From IMG/VR virus record IMGVR_UViG_2534682108_000011: DNA of 14,561 nt; one strand, written 5' to 3'. A model generated the notes under the pieces. It did no database searches and had not been told where the DNA came from. It was given only the letters and a program-made list of their open reading frames with translations. Numbering within the stretch: position 1 is the stretch's first letter; every line of letters begins with the position of its first letter. Both the position numbers and the translations under genes were made by a program. Shown one piece after another: positions 1-14,561 of the stretch. This DNA is from a virus (Duplodnaviria > Heunggongvirae > Uroviricota > Caudoviricetes).

Positions 1-165
1 ATGGCAAAGCCGATCATCACGCTCAATGGCCTAAAAATCGTCATTATGTTGGGAATGCTGGTCATTATTCTCTGCGGTATCCGTTTTGCCGCCGAGATCA
101 TCGTGCCGTTTATTCTCGCATTATTTATTGCTGTTATATATAACTTATTTCGCATAACACATTGA
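1..165 (+). pseudogene. 5' fragment of a host inner-membrane transporter gene (AI-2E/TqsA-like N-terminus) fused to island DNA; 54 codons then stop
   Basis: ATG at 1; translation [45 protein letters not shown] is a hydrophobic TM-helix N-terminus I recall as TqsA/YdgG-like. After about codon 46 the sequence becomes AT-rich and the frame ends at TGA 163-165. Below the 60-aa cutoff of the ORF track. Identity is from memory only. Confidence 0.4.
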
Positions 166-211
166 TTTAATTAAATAATTAACACCGCAAAAAGTGCCAA
201 AAATCGCAAAA

Positions 212-233
212 TGACTACACCAGTGACTACACC
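212..233. repeat. Tandem direct repeat TGACTACACC x2 (12-bp period), followed by small palindrome ACCGTTCGGT (231-240)
   Basis: Read directly: tgactacacc ag tgactacacc. Lies about 70-90 bp inside the left junction; candidate recombinase arm-type site. Confidence 0.35.
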
Positions 234-250
234 GTTCGGTGCACTGTATG

Positions 251-276
251 AAACAACGTGGAACAAATAGACACAA
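251..276 (+). promoter_or_regulatory. Site A: three hexamers AAACAA / GAACAA / ACACAA at exact 10-bp spacing (251, 261, 271)
   Basis: aaacaaCGTGgaacaaATAGacacaa; the 15-mer AACAACGTGGAACAA is identical to the one at 7715-7729. Confidence 0.5.
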
Positions 277-496
277 GAAATATACAGGCGGATCATCTTT
301 CCAGGGGGAAGCACACCAATTCATGAGGGGCGTTAATGTCGATATGGGGATCCCCACCTACCGGAATTTTTTTCCGGTTAAACGTTAATCAGGCTGGTGG
401 GCTTTACCTGTTCGGTAGGTGTTATGATTATCGTAATACCTTTCCCCCAATGGGGTAAAAGCATCAACCGTAACGAAAGTCGTTATGGTTGCCACT

Positions 497-571
497 GATA
501 CCCCAAATTTGGGTATCACGAGTAAGCCCCAAAATCTGGGTGTTACTCTTACTACCCAAACTACGGGTAGT
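497..571. repeat. Array of three inverted repeats (TACCC-N7-GGGTA type) with centres at about 507, 534 and 561 (27-bp phasing)
   Basis: gataccccaaatttgggtatc (497-517), ccccaaaatctggg (527-540), actacccaaactacgggtagt (551-571). Non-coding region. Confidence 0.5.
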
Positions 572-589
572 TTCCGTAGTTTCATGGTC

Positions 590-609
590 GAGTTGCAGAT
601 CTGCAACTC
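590..609. repeat. Perfect 20-bp palindrome GAGTTGCAGATCTGCAACTC
   Basis: Self-complementary by direct reading; centred on AGATCT and contains GATC. Confidence 0.6.
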
Positions 610-863
610 CCCCATTAACCACAGGCGAATTTCCGCCTTCGGTCATTCCTTAATCATCTGCGTAATCATAATGATTATTCAGCAAGCGCAATTTTGCGCT
701 TTGCTTAAAGTTCAGCGAGTTACCGCGCCGACTTCCTCAAATTGAGGTTTCCGAAAATATCAGCGGGTTAGCGATTAAGCTGACCATTAATTAAACTGCG
801 AAAATGTCGTAGTTGTGAGGGGTGTAGCCAACCCATTTTTGGGCCGTCGGGAATATCAACCAG

Positions 864-1145
864 TTACCGCCGCAACCGCTCCGGCTTCTTCCAGTGGTAC
901 GTTATTTTCTCCTTCTCCCGATACATCTCCACGCGGCGACGGTAGGCCAGCAACTCAAGAACTCTGGTTCGTATGTTGCGCATATCCACGCCATTAAGTT
1001 CTATACCATCACGGCGCATCACCTCAGCAACAACACGCGCATAGTTTTCGGCTGTCACGCTGTCCGGCTGCGTGGCCTGTTCGTCAGCCTGCTGGCTGAT
1101 TCCGGCAACGCGGCGGATTAATCCCGTTATTTCGGCTTCTGTCAT
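864..1145 (-). CDS. Hypothetical protein (93 aa) immediately downstream of terL
   Basis: ORF with ATG at 1145..1143 and an SD-like TGAGGT about 9 nt upstream; starts 14 nt after the terL stop. Charged, non-repetitive composition. No family recognised. Confidence 0.5.
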   Translation of the reverse strand: MTEAEITGLIRRVAGISQQADEQATQPDSVTAENYARVVAEVMRRDGIELNGVDMRNIRTRVLELLAYRRRVEMYREKEKITYHWKKPERLRR

Positions 1146-1158
1146 GCTGCTGACCTCA

Positions 1159-2820
1159 TTACACCCCGCTAAATTCTTCCAGTTTCTGGCGGTGGCTGTC
1201 GCTTATATCAAAAGCAAAATCCTCATGCTCTGCCTGGAATGTACCAAACGCCATCAGCGCCGCCACGCTCGGGTCTATCTTGTTCGGTGATTTTTTCTTG
1301 TTCGGCTTGATATTGGCGTTCGCGTCACTCTGCATCACGACGTTACTCATCGACCAGGACAACACCGGATCGCCACGATGCACAATCACCCTGCGGTTAA
1401 CAAAAACTTCGAACGATTTCGCCGCCGGACTGAATCTGAGGTAGGTTTGCGGGAACGGCTCCACCTCAAAACCTGCCCCCTGTAATTGCGTTCTGAGATG
1501 CGTGGCGTTCCACGTATCAAAGCCCACCAGCCTGATATTAAATTTCTCCGCGTCCTGCATGATGTCATCTCTGATCCGGTCGTAATCAATGCAGTCGCCA
1601 GGCGTTGTGCGTATCCAGCCTGCTTTAGCCCACTGACGATAGATGGCGCGGTTTTTATTGGCGGGGTTCTGTAGCTGAAATTCCGGCAGATAGTGACGGG
1701 AAACCAGCATAATGGTTTTACCGACCGGAAAGGCATAGCACACGCTGGAAATATCGCTGGTTGATGATAAGTCCAGCCCCGCGTAACACTCCTGGCCGTG
1801 TAAATCTTCCTCCGTGAACGTTCCGGCACACTCAGCCCATGCGCCGTTACCCATCCACGGGGTAGCCCCCTGGCACCAGATATTAAATCGCTTTGTCATC
1901 ATCTCCACCCACTGCGACGGAATACCCCGCGCTTTCTGGATGGTTGAGGCCAGTTTTTCACGATCGACGGAAACATCAATATTAGGGTTCGCCTTTATCC
2001 ACATCGCCGGATCATCAACCTCGTTTTCGTCGTCCAGTTCGTAAATCAGTACAAAAATTGAATCGTTAACCTCTTCGCCGTCCAGGATCTGGCAGCAATA
2101 ATCATAGTGCTGTTTACAGGCTGAAACGACGTTGCTGCCTGATGTGGTAATGGCAAATAACAGCCCTTCGGGACGTGCGCCCATCCCCAGCTCAAGCGCG
2201 GAATAAACGCCGTTATCGGGGTGCAAGTGGTATTCGTCCACGATGGAAAGGCTTGGGTTTGTTCCCTCGATGGTTGCCGCTTTTGCTGCCAGCGGCTTTA
2301 ACAGGCTGTTGCTTTTCGGGTGTATCACCTTATGCGCCTGAATATTCACCCGCCTGCGTAACGGTAGGGATAAAAGGCACATCTGACGCGCATCATCAAA
2401 GACGATCCGCGCCTGGTCACGGCTCACCGCTGCGGTGTAGATATCCTGCTGACCGTTCTCCATAATCAGAAACCAGTTAGCCAGAATCGCGGCGGTCGTG
2501 GATTTCGCATTTTTGCGCGGCACTTCGATAAAGGCGCTCGTGTATTTGCGCCGTCCGGTGGCCTTAACCTTAAAGCCGAGGATGCACGCAAAGGCGAACT
2601 GCTGCCACGGCTCCAGCTCAATGGGTCTGCCACGCATCGGTCCTTTTACGTGCGGGCACACCCTGGAAAAGGCAATAAACCGCTCCACAACCTCACGATC
2701 GAACGTGTAAAGGGGGCTTTTAAGGTCCGAAAAGTACCGTTTAACGGCCTGTTTCAGCCGTTTACAGGCCGGAATTTTGCCCGTTTTTACGTCTTCTGCG
2801 TACTTATTCCAGGCGGTCAA
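1159..2820 (-). CDS. terL: Terminase large subunit (553 aa)
   Basis: N-terminus MTAWNKYAEDVKTGKIPACKRL is typical of TerL; ATPase P-loop-like PRKNAKST; length and position after terS. Confidence 0.9.
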   Translation of the reverse strand: MTAWNKYAEDVKTGKIPACKRLKQAVKRYFSDLKSPLYTFDREVVERFIAFSRVCPHVKGPMRGRPIELEPWQQFAFACILGFKVKATGRRKYTSAFIEVPRKNAKSTTAAILANWFLIMENGQQDIYTAAVSRDQARIVFDDARQMCLLSLPLRRRVNIQAHKVIHPKSNSLLKPLAAKAATIEGTNPSLSIVDEYHLHPDNGVYSALELGMGARPEGLLFAITTSGSNVVSACKQHYDYCCQILDGEEVNDSIFVLIYELDDENEVDDPAMWIKANPNIDVSVDREKLASTIQKARGIPSQWVEMMTKRFNIWCQGATPWMGNGAWAECAGTFTEEDLHGQECYAGLDLSSTSDISSVCYAFPVGKTIMLVSRHYLPEFQLQNPANKNRAIYRQWAKAGWIRTTPGDCIDYDRIRDDIMQDAEKFNIRLVGFDTWNATHLRTQLQGAGFEVEPFPQTYLRFSPAAKSFEVFVNRRVIVHRGDPVLSWSMSNVVMQSDANANIKPNKKKSPNKIDPSVAALMAFGTFQAEHEDFAFDISDSHRQKLEEFSGV

Positions 2821-3160
2821 GCTCGTCCTCTTCTTCTGTTTCCGGTGGGTTTTTACGGCGGCTTATCGGGTCAAAACCGAGCAAGGAGGCCATTTTTATC
2901 ATCACCCTTTCAGCGTCTGATTTCGCGCTTAATGCGGGGTTTCTGCTCTCGCCGCCCTGACTGTTAACAATGCTGAACCCGCGCGCCGCAAGGTCTGCGA
3001 CGGCTTTCCGGTAAATGGAGTAGTTGACACAATACAGTTCCAGATTGCTCCAGTCGGCGGGGGTCAGGTCTCCCCGTTCCGCAAGCTGCCGCGATTTTTC
3101 CCGCCACTGCTTCACGGCGATGTCATCCAGGTAGGCGGGGGCTTTCGGTGGTCTTGCCAT
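2804..3160 (-). CDS. terS: Terminase small subunit, P27-family-like (118 aa)
   Basis: N-terminus MARPPKAPAYLDD and acidic C-terminal tail EEEDELDRLE; overlaps the terL start by 17 nt. Confidence 0.75.
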   Translation of the reverse strand: MARPPKAPAYLDDIAVKQWREKSRQLAERGDLTPADWSNLELYCVNYSIYRKAVADLAARGFSIVNSQGGESRNPALSAKSDAERVMIKMASLLGFDPISRRKNPPETEEEDELDRLE

Positions 3161-3282
3161 GCTTATTTTTCGTCAGATTATTTTTCAAAAAATTCCCGTG
3201 CATAAAAATTTGAGGAGGCGTTCGGTGCCCGGCGGGGTCGGGTTTGTCCTGAAAACGCCCCCCACCCCGTCATACAGCCTCA

Positions 3283-3465
3283 TCAGCGATTGCGGAAACA
3301 TTCCATAACCTCGCGGTCACGGTCGGTTAATCGCTTCGCTGTGATGCGTTCTGCGCGTCCTGACGCTTTATCTTTATGCCCTGTTTCCTGTGTCTTCCAT
3401 GCGTCACGCTGCCTTATAAGTCCACGGATAAGGCGGTTTTGTTCCCGCTCATTCATCAGCGTCAT
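3283..3465 (-). CDS. Possible small ORF (60 aa) in the HNH-terS intergenic region
   Basis: MTLMNEREQNRLIRGLIRQRDAWKTQETGHKDKASGRAERITAKRLTDRDREVMECFRNR; protein-like composition but no clear SD; overlaps the HNH stop. Could instead be non-coding cos-region DNA. Confidence 0.25.
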   Translation of the reverse strand: MTLMNEREQNRLIRGLIRQRDAWKTQETGHKDKASGRAERITAKRLTDRDREVMECFRNR

Positions 3466-3889
3466 ACATCCAGTTATTGCGGTTAGCGGCCCGTTCTTCC
3501 TCTTCATGAAATCCACCTGCGGCACGCTTGCTTTTTGTTGCCGGATCAAGCCATTTCGTTTTCTGGTTATGACACGCCTGGCACAATGGTTGATGGTTCC
3601 ATTCGGGCCAGAAGAGAACATCATCACCGCCATTAATCGGGATAATGTGATCCACCACCACGGCGGGCGTATATATCCCCTTCTCAAGGCATCGCACGCA
3701 TAACGGGTTTTTACTCAGATACATGGCGCGGTATTTGTCCCACTGTCTGGAGTACCCACGCGCGCGGCGGTGTCCTCGTCTGGCATCCTCTGCACGCCAT
3801 GCCGCCCGCCTGTGCTCCTCACACTTGCCGGACTTCACGCGCCTGTTACAGCCTGGTTCTGTGCATCGTCTTAATGGTTGCCACGGCAT
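3449..3889 (-). CDS. HNH endonuclease (146 aa), packaging-associated
   Basis: Cys pairs CTEPGC and CVRC, plus VDHIIPINGGDD ... NHQPLCQACHNQKT HNH motif. Sits next to terS/terL as in HK97-like cos phages. Confidence 0.85.
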   Translation of the reverse strand: MPWQPLRRCTEPGCNRRVKSGKCEEHRRAAWRAEDARRGHRRARGYSRQWDKYRAMYLSKNPLCVRCLEKGIYTPAVVVDHIIPINGGDDVLFWPEWNHQPLCQACHNQKTKWLDPATKSKRAAGGFHEEEERAANRNNWMYDADE

Positions 3890-4185
3890 CAGTACACCCC
3901 CACATCACGGTAAGCCGTCCAGAGCGCGCCAATCGTCATGGGTACGCGCGTTTTTGCGTTATCCGCTACCAGCTGGCGATTCTCGTACAGGTGAGCGATA
4001 AACATCATGCAGCCAATCTTTATGGCTGGCGTGAACTCCAGCCCGTCATCAAAGCGCCTGCCTATATGTATCTGGCACGCCTCAAGCGATGCGGCAATGT
4101 ATCCGCTGATTAACTGGTCTTCCTCGTCGCCATCGATGCGGCAATGGAGTTTCACTTCTTCCAGGGTGATAAGTTCTTCTGTCAT
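3889..4185 (-). CDS. Head-tail connector protein, gp6-like (98 aa)
   Basis: MTEELITLEEVKLHCRIDGDEEDQLISGYIAASLE matches the conserved N-terminal pattern of this family; start overlaps the adaptor stop. Confidence 0.7.
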   Translation of the reverse strand: MTEELITLEEVKLHCRIDGDEEDQLISGYIAASLEACQIHIGRRFDDGLEFTPAIKIGCMMFIAHLYENRQLVADNAKTRVPMTIGALWTAYRDVGVY

Positions 4186-4520
4186 TTTTCCGCGCCCTCA
4201 CGACAAAGAATTTCAAGGCGTGTCCTGGCGGCATCCGGCAGCGGCTGCCCGATGATATTCAGTACACGCCCCGCCAGCGGCCCCGTACTGACCTTTATCC
4301 GGCTGGTGGCGTTGATGTCCTTCCGGTACCGTATCCAGATCCTTACGGTACCAATCGCCAGCTCTGCACCCGATGAAATGGCCTCCTTGCTGCTGATCAT
4401 GTTCACGCTTGCCCAGAGTGTGTGACCGTCCTCCCACGTTTCGAGTATTTCGCCGGTTATATCCCTGGTCTGTTTCAGGGTCTGAATCGTTACCCTGTCA
4501 CGCAGTCGCCCTATGTTCAT
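4182..4520 (-). CDS. Head-tail adaptor / head-closure protein (about 112 aa from the MNIGRLRDRVTIQ start)
   Basis: MNIGRLRDRVTIQ is the family-typical start. ATG at 4520 abuts the portal stop (4517); the longer ORF-track start at 4562 would overlap the portal by 46 nt. Confidence 0.7.
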   Translation of the reverse strand: MNIGRLRDRVTIQTLKQTRDITGEILETWEDGHTLWASVNMISSKEAISSGAELAIGTVRIWIRYRKDINATSRIKVSTGPLAGRVLNIIGQPLPDAARTRLEILCREGAEK

Positions 4521-5728
4521 TCCGGTTTTTCTCCCTCGCTGATTTTTACTTCCTGTTTCCATGCCTGGCTGAACTCATCACCACCATCACGCGGGGACAG
4601 CCCTTCACGTTCGCGGGCTTCGTTCGGGCACATAACGCCGGATTTGATGCCGCGTTCATAGGTGGCAAAGCGTTCGCCAGGTGTGGCCCGTAACAGGTCC
4701 GCGCTGTCAAACTCCACCTGATACCGGATACCAGGTACAGGCGAGGCCACCAGCAGGGCGTTTTTTATCTGCTGCTCAAAGTTCGCCAGCCACGGGCGCA
4801 TCGTCATAGTGAGAAATGCGCGGCTTGCCTCGCTGAAATTGCTGTAGGTGCTGTTGCTGTATTCCTGCAAAAAAATCGGCGAGACGTTGAACATTCGGGC
4901 GATGTCTTCAATGGTGAAGCGACGGGAGGCCAGCCATTCAGCATCCTGATTACTCATGCCCAGCTGCTGATAGCTCATACCCCCTTCAAGGATGGGCGTT
5001 TTTCCGGCGTTTCTGGCCCCTTTGTAGCGTTCCAGTGCGGCTAATGCCTGTTTGCCTTTCACGCCGTCCAGCCATTCGCCTGACGTGATAACCCCTGCCG
5101 CCATCATGCCATCACGCATCACGCTCGCGCCGTGGCGTTGTTGGGCCAGCCCAAGCCCCAGCGATTCGCGGCAGATGGTTACAGGTGAGCGCCCCATAAA
5201 ACCGTCATCCGTGGAGTAACGAAGGTGGAGAACCTCCCACGGTAAATAGTTGCGGGTGTTTCCGGTGTAGGCGTCAGTGATGCAGTAGCGCCAGTTGTGT
5301 TCGCCTGTCTGCTCCACGTTCACCGACTGCGGCGGGTAAGGATGTAAAGCCACCGGAAAACCATCACGCCCCCACTGAATCACCGCATAAGCATTACCGT
5401 TTAACAGGCAGTGGCGGATCATCATTCGCTTAAACTGGTAGGGAGTCTGCCACGCGTTCGGGCGCTCGTTGAGGATGTGATCGACCGGATGAGAATCAAG
5501 CCACTCTCGGGCCTCCTTCCCCTTCTCATTGCGTACCAGGTACAGGTAACACGGCATGGTAGCCACCGCCTCAGAGATGACCGTGACGGCGTTCATGACG
5601 GCGGGCAGTGATTCCGCTGTCCCCGATGATACGTACTCACCCGACCCCGTGTTCGATGTGCCGGCCAGCGCCATAAATTCATCCAGCGTCATGCTGCGCT
5701 GCTCTTTTTTTCTTCTGAAAGGCCACAT
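4517..5728 (-). CDS. Portal protein, HK97 family (403 aa)
   Basis: Size, position between protease and adaptor, and overall sequence character of HK97-type portals. Confidence 0.85.
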   Translation of the reverse strand: MWPFRRKKEQRSMTLDEFMALAGTSNTGSGEYVSSGTAESLPAVMNAVTVISEAVATMPCYLYLVRNEKGKEAREWLDSHPVDHILNERPNAWQTPYQFKRMMIRHCLLNGNAYAVIQWGRDGFPVALHPYPPQSVNVEQTGEHNWRYCITDAYTGNTRNYLPWEVLHLRYSTDDGFMGRSPVTICRESLGLGLAQQRHGASVMRDGMMAAGVITSGEWLDGVKGKQALAALERYKGARNAGKTPILEGGMSYQQLGMSNQDAEWLASRRFTIEDIARMFNVSPIFLQEYSNSTYSNFSEASRAFLTMTMRPWLANFEQQIKNALLVASPVPGIRYQVEFDSADLLRATPGERFATYERGIKSGVMCPNEAREREGLSPRDGGDEFSQAWKQEVKISEGEKPE

Positions 5729-5729
5729 A

Positions 5730-6302
5730 TCACACCCCCGCTAAATCCGCCCACCAGCGGCGATTATCCGCACGCGGCATTTTTTCGGGGTGCTGCTCAT
5801 ACAGGGAACGGCGGGCCAGCTCCACGCCGGAATCAGGGTAAGCCGGTACGGATGTAACGGTAATTTCGTACAGTTCCGCCACCAGCACGGTGCGCACGCA
5901 TGGATCTGTTGTGGTATCCCATACATCCTTACGGGAACGAAAGCCAAAGCTCATGCCGGATATATCACCACGTTTAACCAGTTCGATAACGTCACGCCCT
6001 GTGCTGGTATCCGGTGGGGTAAGTTCAAAGCGTAACCCTGTGTCGTCCTCTTCCAGTTTCAGCGTGCCGGAACGGGTGCGCCCCAGTAACATGCTGTGGT
6101 CATGCTCATACAGGCCGCGAACGTCATTACCCGCCGCAAGCCACTCAGTAAACGCCCCCCGCTGGAATTTTTCGTAAAACTCCCCCCATAGCAGTTCTGA
6201 AAGCTTATCCCAGCGAACAACGTAGCCCGTCAGCGTACCGGCTCCGCTGGTGGTGATTTCCGATGACCGGATTTCCATACTCTTCATAATTTTTTCACCC
6301 AT
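5730..6302 (-). CDS. Prohead maturation protease, HK97 family (about 190 aa; true start may be an internal Met)
   Basis: MEIRSSEITTSG ... GYVVRWD ... GMSFGF are typical of HK97 prohead proteases; lies between capsid and portal. Confidence 0.85.
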   Translation of the reverse strand: MGEKIMKSMEIRSSEITTSGAGTLTGYVVRWDKLSELLWGEFYEKFQRGAFTEWLAAGNDVRGLYEHDHSMLLGRTRSGTLKLEEDDTGLRFELTPPDTSTGRDVIELVKRGDISGMSFGFRSRKDVWDTTTDPCVRTVLVAELYEITVTSVPAYPDSGVELARRSLYEQHPEKMPRADNRRWWADLAGV

Positions 6303-6341: not shown

Positions 6342-7499
6342 TTAATCGTCGTCCTGTGGCAGTTCCAGAATCTTGATCGCGTTCGAATCCACCACGCCAC
6401 CGCCTAAATATTTCTGCGTGAAAATTTTGATGAAGCCCGGCTCTGTGAGGTTGTCCGGTCTGGTGCGAACACCTGTTTCGTGATCAACAATGTAGTAACC
6501 GCGTTTGAAGTCACCCAGGGCAATAACGTTATCAGGCATAAACTCCAGATATTCGACCGGAAGGCCCAGCAACGTATCAGGATCACCCGCCTGTAAACGG
6601 TCGCGCCAGATGTAATCACCGTTCGCGTTCTTCACCTTCTGAAGTTTTGCCGCCGTCGTGGAGTTAACCACCCAGACCGCGTTTTTGCGGTATTTTTTAC
6701 GTAATGCAAATTTCAGGTCGATCAGCGGGTCCGCAGATGTCCACGCCAGAGATTCGGAAGGTTTAATTACCTGCAACGTACCAAAATCACGCTCTTTGTC
6801 GTTCTTCTCTGCACGGGGTACGGATAAAAAACCTTTTGCTTTTTTGTCACCGTCGCCCACAACCAGATCGCTTTCTTCGGTTTCCGTGAAGGTGTCGCCA
6901 ATCTCACCCGTCAGCCATGAAAGGATGTCCACATCGGAAAAATCCACGATTTCCTGTGTGGTGCGCGGGTACGCATAGACCGGATACAGCTTAATGCTCA
7001 CCTCGTTAATCTGCGGGGTGCTGGTCTGTTCGCGTGCCTTACCCTCTTCACCGTGGTTAACGGTCGCACCGCCAGCGGAAACAAGCTGCTTAAACTCGTT
7101 GCTGCTGATTTTCTTCACGGTACAGATGCGGCGCATGGTGGATTCATCCGCCAGCATTCGCATGATTTCGGTGTTCAGCTCGGGGATAACGGTATAACCA
7201 CCATCAGCGGGAACGCCTGTACTTAATGCGCGGGTTTCACCTGTCAGGATGTAGTTGCGTAGTTCTGCGGGGTCAGTGGTCTGACTGCTTTTACCTGGCT
7301 TGCTGCGCTCTTCGTCTGCAATGGCTTCAAGGCGGGAAATGTCTTTATCGAGGGATTCAGCTTTAGTGCGTAATTCGTCAAATTTTGCGCCCTCAGCATC
7401 GTTAAGACTGCGGTTTTCTTTTTCCGCGTTCTCCAGCATGTCGCGCATCTGATTTTTAATGGCGGTTTTCTGCTGGCGTAATTCGATTATTCTCGGCAT
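6342..7499 (-). CDS. Major capsid protein, HK97 fold (385 aa) with N-terminal coiled-coil delta/scaffold domain
   Basis: Charged, helical N-terminal ~100 aa followed by a capsid-like domain; adjacent protease. Confidence 0.9.
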   Translation of the reverse strand: MPRIIELRQQKTAIKNQMRDMLENAEKENRSLNDAEGAKFDELRTKAESLDKDISRLEAIADEERSKPGKSSQTTDPAELRNYILTGETRALSTGVPADGGYTVIPELNTEIMRMLADESTMRRICTVKKISSNEFKQLVSAGGATVNHGEEGKAREQTSTPQINEVSIKLYPVYAYPRTTQEIVDFSDVDILSWLTGEIGDTFTETEESDLVVGDGDKKAKGFLSVPRAEKNDKERDFGTLQVIKPSESLAWTSADPLIDLKFALRKKYRKNAVWVVNSTTAAKLQKVKNANGDYIWRDRLQAGDPDTLLGLPVEYLEFMPDNVIALGDFKRGYYIVDHETGVRTRPDNLTEPGFIKIFTQKYLGGGVVDSNAIKILELPQDDD

Positions 7500-7752: not shown

Positions 7753-7779
7753 AATGACAAAAAGCCGGATTTCTCCGGC
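7753..7779 (-). terminator. Rho-independent terminator after the PerC-like gene
   Basis: Stem GCCGGA/TCCGGC (7764-7779, loop TTTC) followed on the minus-strand RNA by UUUUUGUCAUUUUUU; 7 bp past the stop at 7786. Confidence 0.65.
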
Positions 7780-7785
7780 TGTTGA

Positions 7786-8058
7786 TTAGCTGTCTGGGTA
7801 ATTACGCCATATTTCATCGCTTACACCATCTATACCCATTTCAGCATAAGTGCGATCTACTGCCTTTCTCAGGTCTCCGAAGTTATCCGGCGGCTCCGGT
7901 GGCTTCTGTGCCTTCCTGGAACATTCCAGCCGTCGCATCGTAACCTGATGCCGTTCCTTGTCTGTCTCCACCAGCAGCATGACTTCACCCCATCGCGCCG
8001 CCGCCCTCCGGTAAAAGCCTTTCGCCTCGAGTTCTTCCGCTATGCGGTCATGTACCAT
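7786..8058 (-). CDS. PerC/ANR-family-like transcriptional regulator (about 90 aa)
   Basis: MVHDRIAEELEAKGFYRRAAARWGEVM resembles the conserved N-terminus of PerC-like proteins (from memory). Start at 8058 chosen because of a GAGGGGG SD and no overlap with SSB; the 130-aa ORF-track start is a GTG inside SSB. Confidence 0.5.
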   Translation of the reverse strand: MVHDRIAEELEAKGFYRRAAARWGEVMLLVETDKERHQVTMRRLECSRKAQKPPEPPDNFGDLRKAVDRTYAEMGIDGVSDEIWRNYPDS

Positions 8059-8068
8059 CGCCACCCCC

Positions 8069-8479
8069 TCAGAACGGAATACCGTCACCGTAAGGGTCAT
8101 CGCCTCCCGCTGGTGGCTGATTACCCTGTGTGCCTGTGGTTTTGCGTCTGTTCCCGCCAGGAAGTGCCGCACGGGCACTGATTACGCTGTCTGCAATAAC
8201 CTGATAACCCTGCCGCGTTTCCCCATTCTGTCCGGTCCACTGGCTGACCTGCATCGTGCCGGATACGCTGGCAACGTCGCCTTTTTGATGTTTAGCCAGG
8301 AAGTCGGCCTGCTTACCAAATGCGATGACCGATAGCCATAACGTCGCCTGCCCATCCTGCGCCTGACTACATGGCAGCGATACCGCCATACGCGCCAGCG
8401 TCATCGGTGTACCCTTGCTGGTCTGTTTTACCTGCGGGTCGTCCACCAGCCGCCCGTAAGCTGCTATCTGTGCTGTCAT
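8069..8479 (-). CDS. ssb: Single-stranded DNA-binding protein (136 aa)
   Basis: OB-fold-like core, Gly/Pro/Gln-rich linker and acidic C-terminal tail ending DDPYGDGIPF (compare canonical SSB ending DDDIPF). Confidence 0.8.
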   Translation of the reverse strand: MTAQIAAYGRLVDDPQVKQTSKGTPMTLARMAVSLPCSQAQDGQATLWLSVIAFGKQADFLAKHQKGDVASVSGTMQVSQWTGQNGETRQGYQVIADSVISARAALPGGNRRKTTGTQGNQPPAGGDDPYGDGIPF

Positions 8480-8754
8480 GATTCCACCTCTCCGGTTTTA
8501 ACGTTGATGGTTGTTACCTGTTCCGCTTCGGCAATCTCCCGCTCTGTCAGCGTGGCAAAATTTGCCGCCGTCGTGGTCATGAATGCGCTTATCAGTTCGG
8601 GATGTGCTTTCGCGTATCCTTCCCCCGCGTGGCGGTCTATCGTTCTGATTGCCACCTTTAAAGCGTGCTCTGTCATGTCTAACGCGCGATATTTCGGTTC
8701 TGTTCTGTCTCTGCGTTTTTTGAGTGATTTATTAAATTTCCCTGAAGTGTGCAT
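8476..8754 (-). CDS. Hypothetical protein (92 aa)
   Basis: ORF with a GAGGGGG SD-like sequence upstream; stop overlaps the ssb start. No family recognised. Confidence 0.45.
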   Translation of the reverse strand: MHTSGKFNKSLKKRRDRTEPKYRALDMTEHALKVAIRTIDRHAGEGYAKAHPELISAFMTTTAANFATLTEREIAEAEQVTTINVKTGEVES

Positions 8755-8802
8755 ATTTATTTTTACCCCCTCGTTTAAAAAGTTTTGAGTTGTGCCTCCC
8801 CT

Positions 8803-9028
8803 TGTCTACCTTATCTACCTTAGTGGCCCTCATACCAGTAATGGCGCGGCTTTCAGCGGGGTAGAGTGCTTTTATCCACTATCTACCCCGTGTCTACCTC
8901 CCTGTCTGATTCAGGTAAAATCAGGTAGAGAGGGTAGATAGTGGGTAGACAGTAAAAAAAGGCTATCTACCTAACTTAATGCACTGAATTAAATGTATTT
9001 TTCTTTACTCAGGTAGACAGGGTAGACA
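8803..9028. repeat. Iteron cluster, putative replication origin: at least 10 copies of TCTACC / GGTAGA in both orientations, flanking an A/T-rich segment (about 8950-9010)
   Basis: Copies at 8803-8810, 8812-8819, 8859-8865, 8881-8887, 8891-8898, 8924-8930, 8933-8940, 8944-8951, 8964-8971, 9012-9019, 9021-9028. Ends 15 bp downstream of the primase stop. Confidence 0.7.
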
Positions 9029-9042
9029 GCAATTACAAAAAA

Positions 9043-10797
9043 TTATAAAAACGCGTCGCACTCGTCTGTTGTTATTGCGTTAGTCTGCGTTACTCCCTTA
9101 ACTTTCCGCGTAATATATTCATGTCCGTAAACTTTCGCGGCTGGCTTCATAGCCTTGCCAAAGTCATTTACGTTTAGCGGTTTGCTCCTGCCTGCGTACG
9201 CCATAAACGCCAGATAGACGCGGTAAAGGCTGTTTCTGGTCGTGTACTTCACTGAATCGCCACCGCCGCCCATCATCAGGCCGCGTGCTTCCTCCAGAAA
9301 ATTCAGGAACTGGCAAAACTCAATAACCGGATCCGTCTGTTGCTTTATTGCCAGAGCTTCATCACCGTCACGCTGTTCCAGTAGTAAAGCCCGTGCCTTC
9401 TCAGGGTCGGTAAAGTTCGCCAGCAATCGGCGGATAATGACAGGGATTTCAGCCGCGATCTTTTCCGGTAGCTCCCTGTCTTTTTCGGCCTCACTGACGA
9501 TATTGTCGAAACGGAAAATCACGCGACGACGTGCCACACCTCCGGCCCGTTCGGTGAATATCATCGGGTTATTGTTGGTCGCCAGCACCACCGCCCTGAT
9601 TACCGCCGTGAAACGCTTTTCGTATTTCGGGTTAATTTCCACGGGGTCACCGCCCGTGATTTTCTTGATGCCCGTTCCTTCGCCTGTATATTTCGGCTGG
9701 TCAGCCAGGACGATAAGACGACTCCCGACAACCTGCGCACGTCCACCAGCATCATCAAGCGATGTCATTTCAGCGCTTACCGTGTTCTGTTTCCCTGCCA
9801 GAAGGCTGGCTATGTGTGTGAATGTACTTTTACCGCTCCCGCCGTCTCCGGTGGCCTCAATAAACATCTGCCAGTCGTACCGGTTCGCCATAATCATGTA
9901 CAGCGCGGCACATATACGCATCATCTTGCGCGGGTCTTTTCCGGCTGCGTGCTCAAGCCATTTATGAAAGTTTGGCGCGTTATCGCGGATGTTCTCCCCT
10001 GGTGCTGGTGGCGTGTACTCAATGCCGTTGTGCGTGGTGATCCAGTTCTCCGGCGTGTGCGGGGAAAATTCCCCCGTTTTCAGGTCAAGCGCACCATTGG
10101 CGAACGGCAACAAATCGCCGGACGGCTCGCCCATTGGTTCGGCAATAACTTTTAACGCTTCCACGGCGTTATTGATTACGCGCTTGCTGAAAGTGGCCCT
10201 GTGCTCTGAATAGATCGCCACCATTTCGCGGCTAAGTTCCATTGTGCTGACCGGACACCATACCCCGCCGCGCCATACGTGAACGATTTCACTTTCAGGA
10301 TGTACGCAAACGCCATCAAAGCGATCGGCAAGCAGCTGCGCGCGCTCACTGTCCGCCATCTGCGAAAGTTGCGCCTTTTGCTTTACCGGAAGCTCAATGA
10401 CCAGACCATCAGAAAGATTCTGGCGCTCACGGGCCAGATATTCGCGCCAGTTCTCCACCTTCTGACCGTGCATACCATCAGGGTAAAAATTTGCATCCTG
10501 TACGCCTGCCGCCGCCAGCTTCTGACCAATCGCCTTTATCATTACTGGCGCAAGATATCCGGCCCTGAATATGCGCACGGATTTTCTGCCTTCCGGCACA
10601 ATTTGCAGCTTATCCAGTTCGGATAACTGCTGCTCCCCAAGCCACACAGGAGGCTCATTATCTCCGGCCATACGCGCGTCATGTTCCTGCCATTGTTTTG
10701 CGTGTGACCAGGCATCACTACCCGCAAAAATAATGACTTCTGTTTCTTTGTGTTTTATGCCGCGTGACTGCTGTTTTACGTTCGGTGCCAGTTTCAT
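9043..10797 (-). CDS. Replication initiator: DNA primase with C-terminal P-loop NTPase/helicase domain (584 aa)
   Basis: Walker A GDGGSGKST in the C-terminal half; size and layout resemble P4-alpha-family primase-helicases; origin iterons immediately downstream. Confidence 0.8.
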   Translation of the reverse strand: MKLAPNVKQQSRGIKHKETEVIIFAGSDAWSHAKQWQEHDARMAGDNEPPVWLGEQQLSELDKLQIVPEGRKSVRIFRAGYLAPVMIKAIGQKLAAAGVQDANFYPDGMHGQKVENWREYLARERQNLSDGLVIELPVKQKAQLSQMADSERAQLLADRFDGVCVHPESEIVHVWRGGVWCPVSTMELSREMVAIYSEHRATFSKRVINNAVEALKVIAEPMGEPSGDLLPFANGALDLKTGEFSPHTPENWITTHNGIEYTPPAPGENIRDNAPNFHKWLEHAAGKDPRKMMRICAALYMIMANRYDWQMFIEATGDGGSGKSTFTHIASLLAGKQNTVSAEMTSLDDAGGRAQVVGSRLIVLADQPKYTGEGTGIKKITGGDPVEINPKYEKRFTAVIRAVVLATNNNPMIFTERAGGVARRRVIFRFDNIVSEAEKDRELPEKIAAEIPVIIRRLLANFTDPEKARALLLEQRDGDEALAIKQQTDPVIEFCQFLNFLEEARGLMMGGGGDSVKYTTRNSLYRVYLAFMAYAGRSKPLNVNDFGKAMKPAAKVYGHEYITRKVKGVTQTNAITTDECDAFL

Positions 10798-11093
10798 TTT
10801 TTACCCCTGAATCCGTTAATCATGGTTTTCAGCTTCTGGATGTTTGCCCGTGCCCTGGCGTTGCTGGTGGGCACGTTATGCGGCGCGGTCTGTACCAGAG
10901 AAAAATCACGCCGGAACTGATAAACAGGCATCACGCAATCATATTCGTAACCTTCACGGCGGTAAGTTACGCACCGTCCCGCCACGCCCTTAATCATTAC
11001 CGTGCCGCCGTACTGGTCGCGGTAAATATCGCCGCGCGTAAATTTAGGGTGAGTGTTGCCACTGGCAGTTAAGCCAGAATATTTAAGTTTCAT
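10794..11093 (-). CDS. Hypothetical protein (99 aa)
   Basis: ORF whose stop overlaps the primase start by 4 nt. No family recognised. Confidence 0.5.
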   Translation of the reverse strand: MKLKYSGLTASGNTHPKFTRGDIYRDQYGGTVMIKGVAGRCVTYRREGYEYDCVMPVYQFRRDFSLVQTAPHNVPTSNARARANIQKLKTMINGFRGKK

Positions 11094-11098
11094 TATTT

Positions 11099-11332
11099 TT
11101 ATTCTCCGGTGTGCTGTTCTTTATATATATCGTGCAATAGATCTATTTCTTGCAGTTCCATTATTACAGGCTCAAGAAGCGTTATTAATGCCGTGGCAAT
11201 TCTTGATTTTTGTTTGTTGCGTTCATTGTCGCCAAGTGTTTCAAGCCATATGCGTAATATTTCCATCATGCTTTCACTGTGAGAAAGTGCAAGAAATGCG
11301 CGGTCTATTGTTTCAAGGTAAATATCACGCAT
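11099..11332 (-). CDS. Hypothetical protein (77 aa)
   Basis: ORF with ATG at 11332, a GGGGA SD-like sequence upstream and a possible coupled upstream small ORF. No family recognised. Confidence 0.45.
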   Translation of the reverse strand: MRDIYLETIDRAFLALSHSESMMEILRIWLETLGDNERNKQKSRIATALITLLEPVIMELQEIDLLHDIYKEQHTGE

Positions 11333-11547
11333 ATTAATCCCCGTCCGTCGTTTTTCTTAAAATAACCTCTGTCACGAAATCAGCATAATCGGCGACGATA
11401 TTCAGTACATCAAGCCCCGTTGATTTATATTCTCTCGTGGAAAGTAAGAAAAAAGCCGCTCTAATAAGCTCTGGCATTGACGAAAGCGCATCAGCCGCAT
11501 CATCAGGAACGCCGGAAAATTACTGTTTCAGGGAATTAAAACGATCA

Positions 11548-11787
11548 TCACGCATAACCCCCCCCATTTTCACAATCAGCAATCAGGATGGCTTTAGCCT
11601 CATTCAGCGCCATATCCGCACTAAGTTGCATAACCGCCAGCGAATGAGGAACGAAAGCCCCTGCATATTCTGTTTCACTGGTGGCGTGCTTATGCGCCAT
11701 GTCAGCAATAACAGAAATATCAATAAGCGCGTGCATCAGCGTAGTGAGCGCGGCGGCTGCTGCGTCCGGTGTGGTTTTATTGCACAT
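11548..11787 (-). CDS. Hypothetical protein (79 aa from the MCNKTTPD start)
   Basis: Strong SD AGGAGG (complement of 11794-11799) 6 nt upstream of ATG 11787..11785; the ORF track's longer start lacks an SD. Confidence 0.5.
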   Translation of the reverse strand: MCNKTTPDAAAAALTTLMHALIDISVIADMAHKHATSETEYAGAFVPHSLAVMQLSADMALNEAKAILIADCENGGGYA

Positions 11788-11977
11788 GGCACACCTCCTG
11801 ACGAATACGGGCGGCGAATACAGCAACACAACCGGACGGGCAACGGCTACGCGCTTCGCGTTCCGTCCAGGCGGTTACGTGGATTATTTGAGATTCTCCG
11901 GCACTCAGTGCCAGAAAACGCCACACAAAGGCCGTTTGTGTGTGTACAAGGTGTGGTATATGATTTACGGCAACCAT
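11777..11977 (-). CDS. Possible small leader ORF (66 aa), or an untranslated leader with hairpins
   Basis: ATG 11977..11975 preceded by AGGAG at 5-nt spacing; its stop overlaps the next gene's ATG. It also contains a hairpin (11922-11942) plus U-rich tract, so it may be a regulatory leader instead. Confidence 0.25.
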   Translation of the reverse strand: MVAVNHIPHLVHTQTAFVWRFLALSAGESQIIHVTAWTEREARSRCPSGCVAVFAARIRQEVCHVQ

Positions 11978-12064
11978 AACGGCTCCTAGTTTACGTTGTT
12001 GGTTAGACGCCCCGTATGTGTTCCCAGCACTGCGGGGCGTTGATTTTTGTGTAATGGCAAGTAC

Positions 12065-12110
12065 AATAGTAATTACCATGTAGGTATAGTAATGAAGGGT
12101 AACTACCATG
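12065..12110. promoter_or_regulatory. Divergent promoter/operator region: direct repeats GTAA(T/C)TACCATG (12069-12080, 12099-12110) and ATAGTAAT (12065-12072, 12086-12093)
   Basis: Repeats read directly; the second copy overlaps the Arc-like start codon; TATAGT -10-like hexamer at 12084-12089. Confidence 0.4.
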
Positions 12111-12281
12111 TCAACACCATTAGAAAAACGTTCGCCTCCATACCAAATGCGATTACCGGAAGACTTCAGAGCGCAGCTAGAAGAAGCAGCTAAGGCCGAT
12201 GGCGACACATCTTTAGCCACTTGGATTAAACGCGTTCTCCGCAAAGAATTACAGCAACGCGGCATAGAACCCAAAGGATAA
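12108..12281 (+). CDS. Arc/MetJ-type ribbon-helix-helix DNA-binding protein (57 aa)
   Basis: MSTPLEKRSPPYQMRLPEDFRAQLEEAAKADGDTSLATWIKRVLRKELQQRGIEPKG: beta-strand (YQMRLPED), helix, DGDTS loop, helix pattern of Arc/CopG proteins. Below the ORF-track cutoff; found by manual translation. Confidence 0.6.
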   Translation: MSTPLEKRSPPYQMRLPEDFRAQLEEAAKADGDTSLATWIKRVLRKELQQRGIEPKG

Positions 12282-12323
12282 AAACTATCAGCGCCGTGGT
12301 GTGAGGTATTACGGCGCATTGCT

Positions 12324-12512
12324 ATGCAGGACAACACAATGACCGATAAAGAATTGACCAAAACATTATCACCGGCACGGAAAAGACGGCGCAGAAAGAT
12401 AGAACATGAATCAGAAAGATTCGCGCCATGTGCTTTTGCCCTTGAGCAATTCCTTAAAGAGTACAGGGAAAAGCGCTCATTGCAGGTATGGCAACGAACT
12501 GAACCAGACTGA
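12324..12512 (+). CDS. Hypothetical small basic protein (62 aa; may start at the internal Met MTDKEL)
   Basis: ORF downstream of the RHH gene on the same strand, followed by a strong terminator; KRRRRK basic patch. No family recognised. Confidence 0.4.
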   Translation: MQDNTMTDKELTKTLSPARKRRRRKIEHESERFAPCAFALEQFLKEYREKRSLQVWQRTEPD

Positions 12513-12607
12513 TTGCATTGCCCACCAGCCTGATAGCGGCTATCATCCCCGTGCTTATGTTTGGGATCACACACACAAACGGCGCAGCGGGTTATCTGTT
12601 CAGAAAG

Positions 12608-12636
12608 GCGGCTCCATTTCGGGGCCGCTTTTTTTA
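12608..12636 (+). terminator. Rho-independent terminator of the plus-strand RHH cassette
   Basis: 8-bp stem GCGGCTCC/GGGGCCGC (one G-U pair), loop ATTTC, followed by TTTTTTT. Confidence 0.7.
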
Positions 12637-12781
12637 TGCCTGAAAAACCCCAATTTTGTGGTTTTCCAGTCTCACCAGGGCGAACGAATCCCCGCCCACG
12701 TTCTGGCGTATATTCAATCTTCATGGTTATAGCTCTGTGTTCAGATGATTGATGTGTGGCGGCTGTGTGCCGCCAGCGTGA

Positions 12782-12970
12782 TTAATGAACTGCCTTGCAG
12801 CTATCCTTCCAGGCCAGAACCTCGGATAAAGACCAGCCAACGGAACGACCGCCAAGTTTACGACGTGATGGGAATTGTCCGGCCTTTTCCAGGCGGTAGC
12901 GGCATGAGCGGCTAAGGCCTGTTAGCTTTTCGCATTCTTTTTCACGTATAAACCGATCAGTGCTTAACAC
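12782..12970 (-). CDS. alpA: AlpA-family regulator / excisionase-like protein (62 aa, GTG start)
   Basis: LTGLSRSCRYRLEKAGQFPSRRKLGGRSVGWSLSEVLAW is the AlpA/Vis/TorI winged-helix signature; SD AAGGGG 5 nt upstream of GTG at 12970. Confidence 0.85.
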   Translation of the reverse strand: MLSTDRFIREKECEKLTGLSRSCRYRLEKAGQFPSRRKLGGRSVGWSLSEVLAWKDSCKAVH

Positions 12971-13128
12971 TATTGCCCCTTTCGTTTCTTAAAGAGTTAT
13001 TTCGTGTTCTATTGCGTTGGGATGTGTCTGATTGTGTCAGGATGATTCAGAGTTGGCAAATGTTGAGGTCGTATGGTTTACAGAAACAGGAATAATCAGG
13101 ATAAAATCATTTAAATTCATGTTAATAC

Positions 13129-13162
13129 AAAGGCATAAAATATTGTTTCATGCCTTTTTTCT
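13129..13162. terminator. Hairpin with T/A tracts on both sides; candidate int terminator (bidirectional)
   Basis: Stem AAAGGCAT/ATGCCTTT (13129-13136 and 13150-13157), 13-nt loop, TTTTTT downstream on the plus strand and a U-rich tract on the minus-strand RNA. Confidence 0.4.
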
Positions 13163-13251
13163 CGCTATTTAAAGAGTGATTCGCTAGTGTATAAAAAAAC
13201 AGTAACACATTAAAAATCAGCCACTTATAAATCTGTACACTTTTTCGCCTC

Positions 13252-13297
13252 TTGTTCGTAGTTGTTCCGCATTGTTGCTCATTGTTGCACGTTGTAT
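13252..13297 (+). promoter_or_regulatory. Site C: five hexamers TTGTTC, TTGTTC, TTGTTG, TTGTTG, TTGTAT at exact 10-bp spacing (13252, 13262, 13272, 13282, 13292)
   Basis: Read directly; reverse complement of the GAACAA motif at sites A and B; between the int stop (13344) and alpA. Confidence 0.55.
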
Positions 13298-13310
13298 CTG
13301 TTCGCATATC

Positions 13311-13326
13311 CAGTATGCGCATACTG
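13311..13326. repeat. Perfect 16-bp palindrome CAGTATGCGCATACTG just downstream of the int stop
   Basis: Self-complementary by direct reading; no flanking U-tract in the right position for a terminator, so more likely a protein-binding site. Confidence 0.4.
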
Positions 13327-13343
13327 AAAAAATACGAAAAAAA

Positions 13344-14561
13344 TTATTTTCTTCTGGCTACGGGTAGCGTGGTTACGTTTTCATGTGTTCCCGCCAGTAT
13401 CCCTAACCGCTCCGTCCACATATCCAGCGCATTGCGTTTAGCATCCAGATAACGGGAATGATTATAAACTCGCTGCATTCCTGGCATCTGGTGGCCTGTA
13501 AGCTGCTCCACGACATGCGGATCAACGCCTAAATCGTTCAGCATGGTTGTAAAGGTGCGCCGGATGTCATGCAGTGACCAGTGAGGATGATTAAGCCTCC
13601 TGTGCGCTAATCTTCCATACTGCGATACGCTGGCCTCCTGTTTCACTGCCCCCAGCAATAAGCCCGTGTGCCTGTTCTGCTCCACCAGCTGCGTGACGAA
13701 CGGCAGGATCGCTTCCGGTATGGGCCGGAATATTGCGACCTTCGTTTTGCTGTGCTCCTTCGGAACGGTCCATAGCATTTCCGTAAAATCCCACTCCCCG
13801 ATCTCCGATAACCTCAGTTCTACCGTTCTGGCTCCGAAGACAATCAGGAGGCGGATTAACGCGACGTAGTAAGGGGAAAATATTTTTTTATCCAGCGCCT
13901 GCAATAACTCGCCCAGTTCTTTGGTGCTTAAGACACGTTCGCTTATATCCGGTTTTTTCCCAACGTCCGCCACGTTCAGATCGTCCAGAACGTTGCTGAT
14001 TGCATAGCGCCGCCTACGGCAGAACTTAAGCGCCTGTTTGCACGCCTGTAGCACGAATCCGGCAGTAACAGGCGTTCGCTTTGCCACCTGGTCAAAACAG
14101 GCCAGCCAGTGCCGTAGCTCGCATTTATCTAGCGGCATAGCACCAATCTGCTGTATTACGTGATTATTAAGTCGCCTTTTCAGGGCGATATAATCCACGC
14201 GGTTTTCCTTTACGTAATACTCAAGCCAGTAGGTGAGCGCATCGCCAACCGTTACGGGCTTTAACGCTTCCTGTACGGTGTAATTCATCTCATGACGTGG
14301 ATTTTTCCCCTCAGCCAGCCATGCGCGGCACTGGGCGGCTTTTTCCCTGGCTGCTTTCAGACTCAGATCAGGATAATTTCCCAGCTTAATACGTTCCGGT
14401 CGTGTCTCTCTTCCCGTTCCTGCCCTGTAAGTGAAATACCAGGTTAATTTCCCTGATGTTAAATATTTCACGCTCAGATTTCCGCCATCGCTATAAAACG
14501 TGTTTTTCTCCGCTGGCTTACCATGAAGTTTCCTTAGCAATGTGTCGCTCAGTTTGTTCAT
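13344..14561 (-). CDS. int: Tyrosine site-specific integrase, P4-like (405 aa), start codon at the window edge
   Basis: N-terminal arm-binding-type domain (KLSDTLLRKLHGKPAEKNTFYSDGGNLSVKYLTSGKLTWYFTYR), C-terminal catalytic region with HDIRRTFTT and conserved His/Tyr context. Confidence 0.9.
   Translation of the reverse strand: MNKLSDTLLRKLHGKPAEKNTFYSDGGNLSVKYLTSGKLTWYFTYRAGTGRETRPERIKLGNYPDLSLKAAREKAAQCRAWLAEGKNPRHEMNYTVQEALKPVTVGDALTYWLEYYVKENRVDYIALKRRLNNHVIQQIGAMPLDKCELRHWLACFDQVAKRTPVTAGFVLQACKQALKFCRRRRYAISNVLDDLNVADVGKKPDISERVLSTKELGELLQALDKKIFSPYYVALIRLLIVFGARTVELRLSEIGEWDFTEMLWTVPKEHSKTKVAIFRPIPEAILPFVTQLVEQNRHTGLLLGAVKQEASVSQYGRLAHRRLNHPHWSLHDIRRTFTTMLNDLGVDPHVVEQLTGHQMPGMQRVYNHSRYLDAKRNALDMWTERLGILAGTHENVTTLPVARRK

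Follow-up and report, generated by a model that had tools for sequence, protein, structure and literature searches.

A close relative of the capsid-forming satellite EcCIEDL933 inserted in the tqsA gene of Escherichia coli

To our knowledge, the phage-inducible chromosomal islands that form capsids (cf-PICIs) are the only satellites that make their own capsids and borrow tails alone. Their tail-less capsids can take the tails of different phages, which opens the way to the crossing of species boundaries. The family was already described in 2022-23, its prototype being EcCIEDL933 from Escherichia coli O157:H7 EDL933 (10.1101/2022.09.08.507074, Alqurainy et al.; 10.1101/2025.02.11.637232, He et al.). 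AlpA-mediated induction by a helper, small island-encoded capsids, packaging of island DNA only and helper-tail-dependent transfer have been shown for this prototype only (10.1101/2022.09.08.507074; 10.1101/2025.02.11.637232). Here we describe a stretch of 14,561 nucleotides, held in IMG/VR as the virus record IMGVR_UViG_2534682108_000011 and called below, at its full length, the window. We consider it, with a probability of about 93%, to be an essentially intact cf-PICI of the EcCIEDL933 lineage, placed in the E. coli gene tqsA by its own tyrosine integrase. The island is a close variant of a characterised element and is not new; its novelty is low because the packaging proteins are near-identical to those of the published prototype.

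The gene content, gene order, boundaries, integrity and relatedness of the island were all observed here. The window is E. coli chromosomal DNA, 99.97% identical to the record NZ_CP062876.1 (O157:H16, pig faeces), from which it differs by 1 mismatch and 3 single-base indels. All the indels lie in homopolymers of 7-9 bases (positions 367, T7/T8; 11557, C8/C9; and 13883, T7/T8), and these differences are likely to be sequencing error in one of the two sequences. The island is ~14.6 kb in size and every real gene is on the minus strand, to which the gene coordinates given below refer unless stated otherwise. Genes were assigned by profile searches with Pfam, NCBIfam and PHROGs, and 20 small or intergenic open reading frames (ORFs) were also scanned against PHROGs. 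A preliminary description of the window, made from its letters, had named an integrase, AlpA, a primase-helicase, an HK97-type head module and HNH, TerS and TerL packaging genes, and had proposed a cf-PICI from this content. All of these families were found where it had placed them, on the minus strand and above the Pfam or NCBIfam thresholds, and the proposal agrees with the comparison with EcCIEDL933 set out below. Its claim that tail, baseplate, tape-measure, holin and endolysin families are missing was likewise confirmed by Pfam, PHROGs and NCBIfam over all ORFs, and no such gene is present in the island in the RefSeq annotation of the 99.97%-identical record.

The prototype EcCIEDL933 (NZ_CP008957.1, ~1,680,300-1,695,600) is bordered by roxA and phoQ and measures 15.4 kb, compared with 14.6 kb for the island. 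Both have the same gene order from int to a terminal gene of 93 amino acids (aa), with 97.1% nucleotide identity over the 6.9-kb packaging half and 92% over int and alpA. The nine packaging-module proteins are 96.4-100% identical. In the head these identities are 99.2% for the major capsid protein (MCP), 99.3% for the portal, 97.4% for the protease, 96.4% for the adaptor and 99.0% for the connector, and among the packaging proteins they are 98.6% for HNH, 100% for a 60-aa protein, 100% for the small terminase subunit (TerS) and 98.6% for the large one (TerL). Outside this module PerC is 100% identical, the single-stranded DNA-binding protein (SSB) 99.3%, AlpA 98.4% and Int 91.9%. Moreover, all nine packaging genes are equal in length to those of the prototype, and the pooled ratio of non-synonymous to synonymous change (dN/dS) of the module is 0.06 (130.5 synonymous differences, 28.5 non-synonymous), a value that speaks against a prophage in decay. 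For TerL the ratio is 0.04.

The features by which cf-PICIs are recognised were found as well. The island is att-bounded and its size falls within the ~10-18 kb given for the class (10.1101/2025.02.11.637232). Its left half is PICI-type, with an integrase, an AlpA-type regulator and a primase-replicase, and all eight packaging components are full length and stand in exactly the published order that is used to define cf-PICIs (10.1101/2025.02.11.637232). The packaging genes are related to those of EcCIEDL933 at 96.4-100%, for a required 50-90% or more, and no 'forbidden' tail, holin or lysis component was found in the island. All 11 core components of the 'Type A' model of SatelliteFinder, whose models separate cf-PICIs from PICIs (PMC10085698), are also present (the eight packaging components together with int, alpA and pri-rep).

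The gene at 6342..7499 encodes the MCP, an HK97-fold protein with an N-terminal delta domain (PF05065, TIGR01554). It matches the PDB entry 9gyi, a 385-residue 'major head protein', at 382 of the 385 residues, and we take this entry to be the electron cryo-microscopy structure of the EcCIEDL933 capsid. A SxGxxAD maturation motif starts at residue 93 of the MCP; this motif and the cleavage position have been reported for the prototype (10.1101/2025.02.11.637232). The module continues with a prohead serine protease of the S78, HK97 family (5730..6302, PF04586), the portal (4517..5728, PF04860, E 9e-91), the head closure or head-tail adaptor protein (4182..4520, PF05521, TIGR01563) and a gp6-like head-tail connector (3889..4185, PF05135, TIGR01560). 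The adaptor matches PDB 2kz4, a 'putative head-tail adaptor', over its full length (112 aa, E 5e-70), and an alternative upstream ATG at 4562 would yield a protein of 126 aa.

The adaptor and the connector set the tail specificity of the prototype (10.1101/2025.02.11.637232). Since both proteins are nearly identical to those of the prototype, HK106-type tails would be expected for this island. The synteny from the capsid gene to TerL is kept in relatives from Shigella, Citrobacter, Erwinia and Gilliamella, in which the adaptor is the most divergent of the head proteins, with 38-48% identity in two of those relatives compared with 65-78% for the portal; in the Erwinia relative it was not detected. 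This divergence across genera fits the published model in which adaptor and connector determine tail specificity.

The packaging genes begin with that of an HNH endonuclease (3449..3889, PF01844), a packaging cofactor of HK97-type terminases. The 60-aa protein (3283..3465, phrog_3173) is the same RefSeq protein, WP_000174068.1, as in EcCIEDL933, and we infer from its position in the gene order that it is the homologue of 'gene 1792' of the prototype, mutation of which severely cut transfer (10.1101/2022.09.08.507074). TerS, of the P27 family (2804..3160, PF05119, TIGR01558), is also shared with EcCIEDL933 as WP_000113645.1. It is followed by TerL (1159..2820), with its ATPase and nuclease domains (PF03354, PF20441), and by the last gene of the island, which encodes the 93-aa protein (864..1145, phrog_1561), 87% identical to its EcCIEDL933 counterpart.

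An HNH-cos-terS arrangement is typical of HK97-type phages. In the island, the packaging site is predicted to be, probably, the 122-bp gap between the gene of the 60-aa protein and terS, upstream of the latter (3161..3282, minus strand), in which conserved blocks occupy ~3185-3268. These blocks of the putative cos, which on the minus strand read GGGGTGGGGG...CCTCAAATTTTTAYGC, are kept in relatives from E. coli, Citrobacter, Erwinia and Gilliamella whose proteins are 48-81% identical. The lambda-type cosN GGGCGGCGACCT is absent from the window. The closest relative from another species, that of Shigella flexneri SFBU1023 (L076 14214-14300; MCP 99% identical), has lost ~110 bp, a stretch that takes in the putative cos region and codons 1-19 of terS. 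This copy is probably defective for packaging.

The integration site sets the island apart from the prototype. EcCIEDL933 is inserted at the 3' end of phoQ, whereas the island lies in tqsA (ydgG), encoding an exporter of autoinducer-2, at approximately codon 47, and the gene is disrupted. Positions 1..137 of the window (plus strand) are host DNA, annotated in the RefSeq record as the 5' fragment of tqsA, and genomes with an uninterrupted tqsA match the window only up to 137, in agreement with the island start previously proposed at 140. The right end of the island is ~190 bp past the window, where a copy of the att core is found (L001 26747-26755) and tqsA then resumes. This core, TGCTGTTAT, is a 9-bp direct repeat present at both junctions, the first copy being at 129..137 and the two standing 14.6 kb apart; the flanks joined across one core give an intact tqsA at 100% identity. 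Concerning the reading frame, the N-terminus of TqsA is not restored at the right junction, where an in-frame stop is placed just upstream (L001 26748-27653). An attachment site that ordinary prophages do not use is counted among the traits of cf-PICIs; for tqsA, disruption by 'prophages' or integrative elements, left untyped, was noted in earlier surveys (PMC3603311, PMC7192596). No tRNA or tmRNA was found in a scan of the window, and the island is not tRNA-associated.

Both flanks consist of host genes, namely ydgV, mdtJ and mdtI on one side and tqsA, pntB and pntA on the other (RefSeq annotation). No tail or lysis gene adjoins the island on either flank in the annotation of the 99.97%-identical record, a possibility which the preliminary description had raised against its own proposal. 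Of 5,426 complete E. coli genomes, 5,169 have no interruption of tqsA at this site, 246 (~4.5%) have the tqsA-island junction and 155 contain at least 80% of the island. Near-identical copies were found in unrelated E. coli from pigs, cattle, humans and one wildebeest, which suggests a recent spread. The island is not contained in any of 50,697 phage genome records; the best match among them covers 14% of it at 78% identity. One of the phage-record matches, a 16.5-kb 'induced prophage', may itself be a satellite.

The tyrosine integrase gene (13344..14561) is an uninterrupted ORF of 405 aa in the window, with a possible GTG start 12 nt past the window edge, and encodes arm-binding, central and catalytic domains (PF13356, PF22022, PF00589). 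Two tandem arm-type repeats TGACTACACC at 212..233 (plus strand) are probable binding sites of the integrase arm domain. The same pair is found directly upstream of int, past the window (L001 26597-26618); these two pairs account for all four exact copies in L001, and 7 copies with at most 1 mismatch were counted for 1.15 expected. Arm-type integrase sites (ACTACACC) are conserved in EcCIEDL933. Of the 34 differences between the two integrases, 19 fall within the first 60 residues and the catalytic half is almost identical; the tqsA and phoQ attB sites share the half-site GT(T/G)AAG(A/T)AT (regions compared for att and arm sites: L001 26573-26800; L003 600-830 and 15730-16140). A second integrase gene is found beside a truncated ynfG (L001 1-1700, ~10-12 kb to the left of the window), which suggests a second integrative element near the island in the same genome.

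The gene alpA (12782..12970, PF05930) encodes the master activator of the PICI cycle in Gram-negative bacteria, and an alpA mutant of EcCIEDL933 lost induction and transfer (10.1101/2022.09.08.507074). The A/T-rich region between int and alpA (12971..13343, ~39% GC) is the presumed control region of alpA. It contains tandem repeats of AATCATGTTAA (~3 copies at 13094-13125) and of TTGTTGCACA (~3.4 copies at 13262-13295), which are candidate regulator-binding sites for the helper-dependent activation of alpA.

The replicase gene pri-rep (9043..10797) encodes a D5/P4-alpha-type superfamily 3 helicase with a primase family C-terminal domain (PF08706, PF19263, PF03288). The protein just passes the TIGR01613 model 'primase, P4 family' (109.1 bits for a cut-off of 108.7) and, as no primase catalytic domain was detected in it as such, it is a primase by family name only. 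It is of the same type as the replicase of the Shigella flexneri relative (90.8% identity), whereas the similarity to the EcCIEDL933 replicase (82%) extends over the first 163 aa only and the remainder is replaced. In fact, the island has a 584-aa replicase of the D5_N/DUF5906 type and EcCIEDL933 one of 710 aa of the DUF927 type. The preliminary description had credited the island with its own replication origin, and this is supported by iterons beside the replicase gene. The putative origin (8798..9032) consists of ~11 GGTAGA(N)AG iterons, in both orientations, around an A/T-rich stretch; the exact GGTAGANAG occurs 7 times at 8879-9029, compared with 0.21 expected, and none of 200 shuffled sequences reached 7. 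The cluster stands directly downstream of the replicase gene, and a place just 3' of rep is the position of the origins of Staphylococcus aureus pathogenicity islands and PICIs. Since the replicase and the origin differ from those of the prototype, the replication of the island is deduced from domains and iterons only.

Several further differences from EcCIEDL933 were observed. There is no nucleotide match over the origin region of the island, most of the replicase and several small genes. Three small genes between the Icd-like gene and the DUF4222 gene are replaced, a 74-aa gene found upstream of the capsid gene in the prototype is absent from the island, the gene downstream of alpA is fused in the island to the Icd-like ORF, and the int-distal non-coding end is rearranged.

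By analogy with EcCIEDL933, from which the induction, capsid size, packaging specificity and tail capture of the island are taken, we suggest the following cycle; its experimental basis is the work on the prototype (10.1101/2022.09.08.507074 and 10.1101/2025.02.11.637232). A helper phage would switch on alpA, and AlpA would then drive the excision and expression of the island. The circle would be copied by the D5/P4-type replicase, starting at the iteron origin that directly follows the replicase gene. From the late operon, the MCP, protease and portal would build a small T=4 HK97-fold procapsid, giving a capsid of ~47 nm, and the HNH protein, TerS and TerL of the island would cleave and pack only island DNA, at a cos probably situated just upstream of terS. 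The adaptor and connector would finally close the head and dock the tail of the helper or of a co-resident siphovirus, and lysis would be supplied by the helper phage.

Some points weigh against considering this copy an intact and active cf-PICI. The position of cos is a prediction, the replicase and origin are unlike those of the prototype, no helper phage has been tied to this strain, and the induction and transfer of this particular copy are argued by analogy with EcCIEDL933. In addition, two accessory genes are damaged, one being split (phrog_2512) and the other, downstream of alpA, being fused to the Icd-like ORF, and a one-base homopolymer difference in the closest record would frameshift int. 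One alternative, which we regard as improbable, is that the island is a cf-PICI by descent but an immobile copy, either a fixed tqsA knock-out without a helper or one disabled by a defect in int, the regulation or the swapped replicon. It is favoured by the RefSeq record, in which int reads as frameshifted owing to the T7/T8 difference at 13883, by the fused or truncated gene downstream of alpA and the other split accessory gene, and by the fact that the 17 prophages resident in EDL933 all failed to induce the prototype (10.1101/2022.09.08.507074), so that helpers are not universal. However, int is uninterrupted in the window and all three indels fall in homopolymers, where sequencing error in either sequence could be responsible; none of the eleven core genes is broken, and purifying selection acts on them; and the near-identical copies in unrelated E. 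coli suggest recent spread.

We consider far less probable, and already largely refuted, the explanation that the island is the remnant of a degraded HK97-like prophage that has lost its tail, lysis and lysogeny modules, with head genes that are decaying leftovers. The head and terminase genes are indeed phage-derived, two small accessory genes are broken and the related Shigella copy has lost its cos region and the 5' end of terS. Nevertheless, the decay of head genes, foreseen as a possible objection when the satellite was first proposed, was not seen, the nine packaging genes having the prototype length and the low pooled dN/dS given above, with no sign of relaxed selection, and no tail, lysis or immunity remnants were found in the island. 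The ends are precise and att-bounded, with the same junction in 246 genomes, and the left half carries the PICI-type int, alpA and pri-rep instead of a phage repressor and replication module. The capsid-to-TerL order is unlike that of HK97-type phages and is kept across genera, and nothing like the island was found in the 50,697 phage records.

A classical PICI or P4-like satellite that remodels helper capsids is hardly credible and is already refuted by gene content, for although int, alpA, DUF4222, pri-rep, SSB, PerC and the hairpin module described below are common to classical E. coli PICIs, and the P4-family primase C-terminal domain of the replicase is, with int and alpA, all that is shared with P4-like satellites, the island has its own MCP, protease, portal, adaptor, connector and TerL, which set cf-PICIs apart (PMC10085698), it has no lambda-type cosN, and no ORF was assigned to the Sid, Psu, Delta, Epsilon, Cnr or Rpp/Ccm type in Pfam and PHROGs. 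P4-like satellites are recognised by sid, psu, delta, epsilon and cnr, among which are capsid-size, decoration and regulatory genes, and by their use of P2-type helper capsids. Classical PICIs are defined as lacking the portal, adaptor, connector and TerL and as using helper capsids, and all four genes are present here; the first three are exclusion criteria in the PICI model of SatelliteFinder (PMC10085698).

Downstream of alpA there is a 315-aa ORF (11777..12724), of which the C-terminal 64 aa (11777-11977) form an Icd-like domain (NF033153, PHROGs). Its N-terminal 198 aa are similar (84%) to the 247-aa gene product encoded downstream of alpA in EcCIEDL933 and the Icd-like part is 98% identical. 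The ORF resembles an in-frame fusion or else a pseudogene, and RefSeq annotates the region as two pieces, one of them incomplete. An opposite-strand ORF of 62 aa inside it (12324-12512) matches phrog_21027 (E 1.6e-15), and the A/T skew changes sign in 12001-12500. Because of this ORF and this change of sign, the coding strand at 11777-12724 is uncertain. Three sub-threshold Rfam matches (E 0.4-0.65) were also placed at 12596-12689; Rfam searches of the whole window at gathering thresholds and of two sub-regions at E<=1 gave nothing credible.

The phrog_2512-family accessory gene (11334..11829) is broken into two ORFs, 11548-11829 and 11334-11477, which match positions 1-76 and 104-146 of the profile, and RefSeq marks an internal stop. 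The C8/C9 homopolymer at 11550-11557, which differs between the window and the RefSeq record, is located within this gene. The broken gene is followed by those of a 77-aa protein of phrog_2196 (11099..11332, PHROGs) and a DUF4222 protein (10794..11093, PF13973), 78% identical to that of EcCIEDL933. On the other side of the replicase and origin are genes encoding a 92-aa protein of phrog_1231 (8476..8754, PHROGs), SSB (8069..8479, PF00436) and a PerC-family regulator (7786..8058, PF06069), which is the same RefSeq protein, WP_000233299.1, as in EcCIEDL933. Directly after perC, a terminator-like hairpin followed by a T-run (7763..7780, minus strand; a consensus match only) marks the boundary between the early genes and the packaging operon. 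In simple scans of the window for promoters and terminators the counts were at chance level, this hairpin being the sole terminator worth naming.

The int-distal end of the island (~138-863) is non-coding and contains a conserved multi-hairpin module of ~125 nt (487..614, minus strand), inside a structured stretch (440-630) with fold z-scores, relative to shuffled sequence, of -9.2 and -9.6 on the two strands. Four to five near-perfect hairpins make up the module, and ACTACCC/GGGTAGT and ACTACGG/CCGTAGT are alternatives of which only one can form at a time. Copies of the module were found in 1,132 of the 5,426 E. coli genomes as well as in 70 contigs of IMG/VR; it is nearly invariant across classical PICIs and cf-PICIs, and occupies the same int-distal position in two classical PICIs whose flanks are otherwise unrelated. 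No match was obtained in Rfam or among the 50,697 phage records. The module is absent from EcCIEDL933 and, because this prototype transfers without it, is not needed for the cf-PICI cycle.

Three other roles for the module were considered and rejected. A lambda-like cos does not fit, as cosN is absent from the window and in a classical PICI (L004) it lies ~1.4 kb from the module; a phage-derived site of the nut, qut or put type would not agree with the lack of matches in the phage collection; and the overlapping ORFs have no PHROG matches, which speaks against coding. At several positions a one-sided substitution leaves a G-U pair on the minus strand, that of the late operon, but not on the other strand; one position contradicts this. 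The covariation test was not significant because the copies are nearly identical, 109 of 500 shuffles reaching the observed score. We are therefore tentative in proposing, as a rather doubtful possibility, that the module is an undescribed functional, satellite-specific structured element, most likely an RNA transcribed with the late operon; such a predicted RNA may act as a 3' untranslated region stabiliser or as a small RNA. The plasmid collection gave three matches to the module; they resemble PICIs that were excised or mis-binned, and a chromosome-size record. One 10,790-bp non-mobilizable E. coli 'plasmid' carrying it (H101, NZ_CP148328.1) may be no plasmid but a PICI excised as a circle.

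Between the module and the last gene there are degenerate repeats of ~20 nt resembling AATATCAGCGGGTTAGCG (648..870), with copies at 708-725, 756-773 and 852-869. Each copy stands beside a short hairpin with an A/T loop and the last overlaps the stop codon of the 93-aa gene, as though the 3' end of this gene had been duplicated several times. There are approximately six of these copies in EcCIEDL933 and three or four in the island.

The window brings no new principle and illustrates the variation within the cf-PICI lineage. The head and packaging half is almost frozen, under strong purifying selection, and the exchanges around it affect the integrase target, the replicon and the accessory genes. 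The insertion, moreover, knocks out tqsA in ~4.5% of complete E. coli genomes, and this copy could be used as a natural variant for the study of replicon exchange and of the choice of attachment site in cf-PICIs.

Compared with other known systems, the island resembles the classical E. coli PICIs of the EcCICFT073 type (L004 and L005, beside clpS) in its tyrosine integrase with ACTACACC arm sites, AlpA, Icd-like gene, DUF4222 protein, DNA primase family protein and SSB, as well as in its last gene, a small ORF of ~93 aa that is annotated as hypothetical in those elements, and in the 125-nt hairpin module at the int-distal end. Classical PICIs, however, have only capsid-like, decoration and TerS-like genes and depend on helper capsids and terminase, unlike the island, and L004 has a lambda-type cosN. 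With the HK97-type cos phages (HK97 and the helper HK106) the island shares an HK97-fold MCP with a delta domain, an S78 protease, an HK97-family portal, gp6-like and head-closure neck proteins and packaging by HNH, TerS and TerL. These phages, of ~40 kb compared with 14.6 kb, have in addition the tail, lysis and repressor genes that are missing in the island, and their capsids are T=7, whereas that of the prototype is T=4 (10.1101/2025.02.11.637232). Moreover, the genes of the island run from capsid to terminase, whereas those of the phages run from terminase to capsid.

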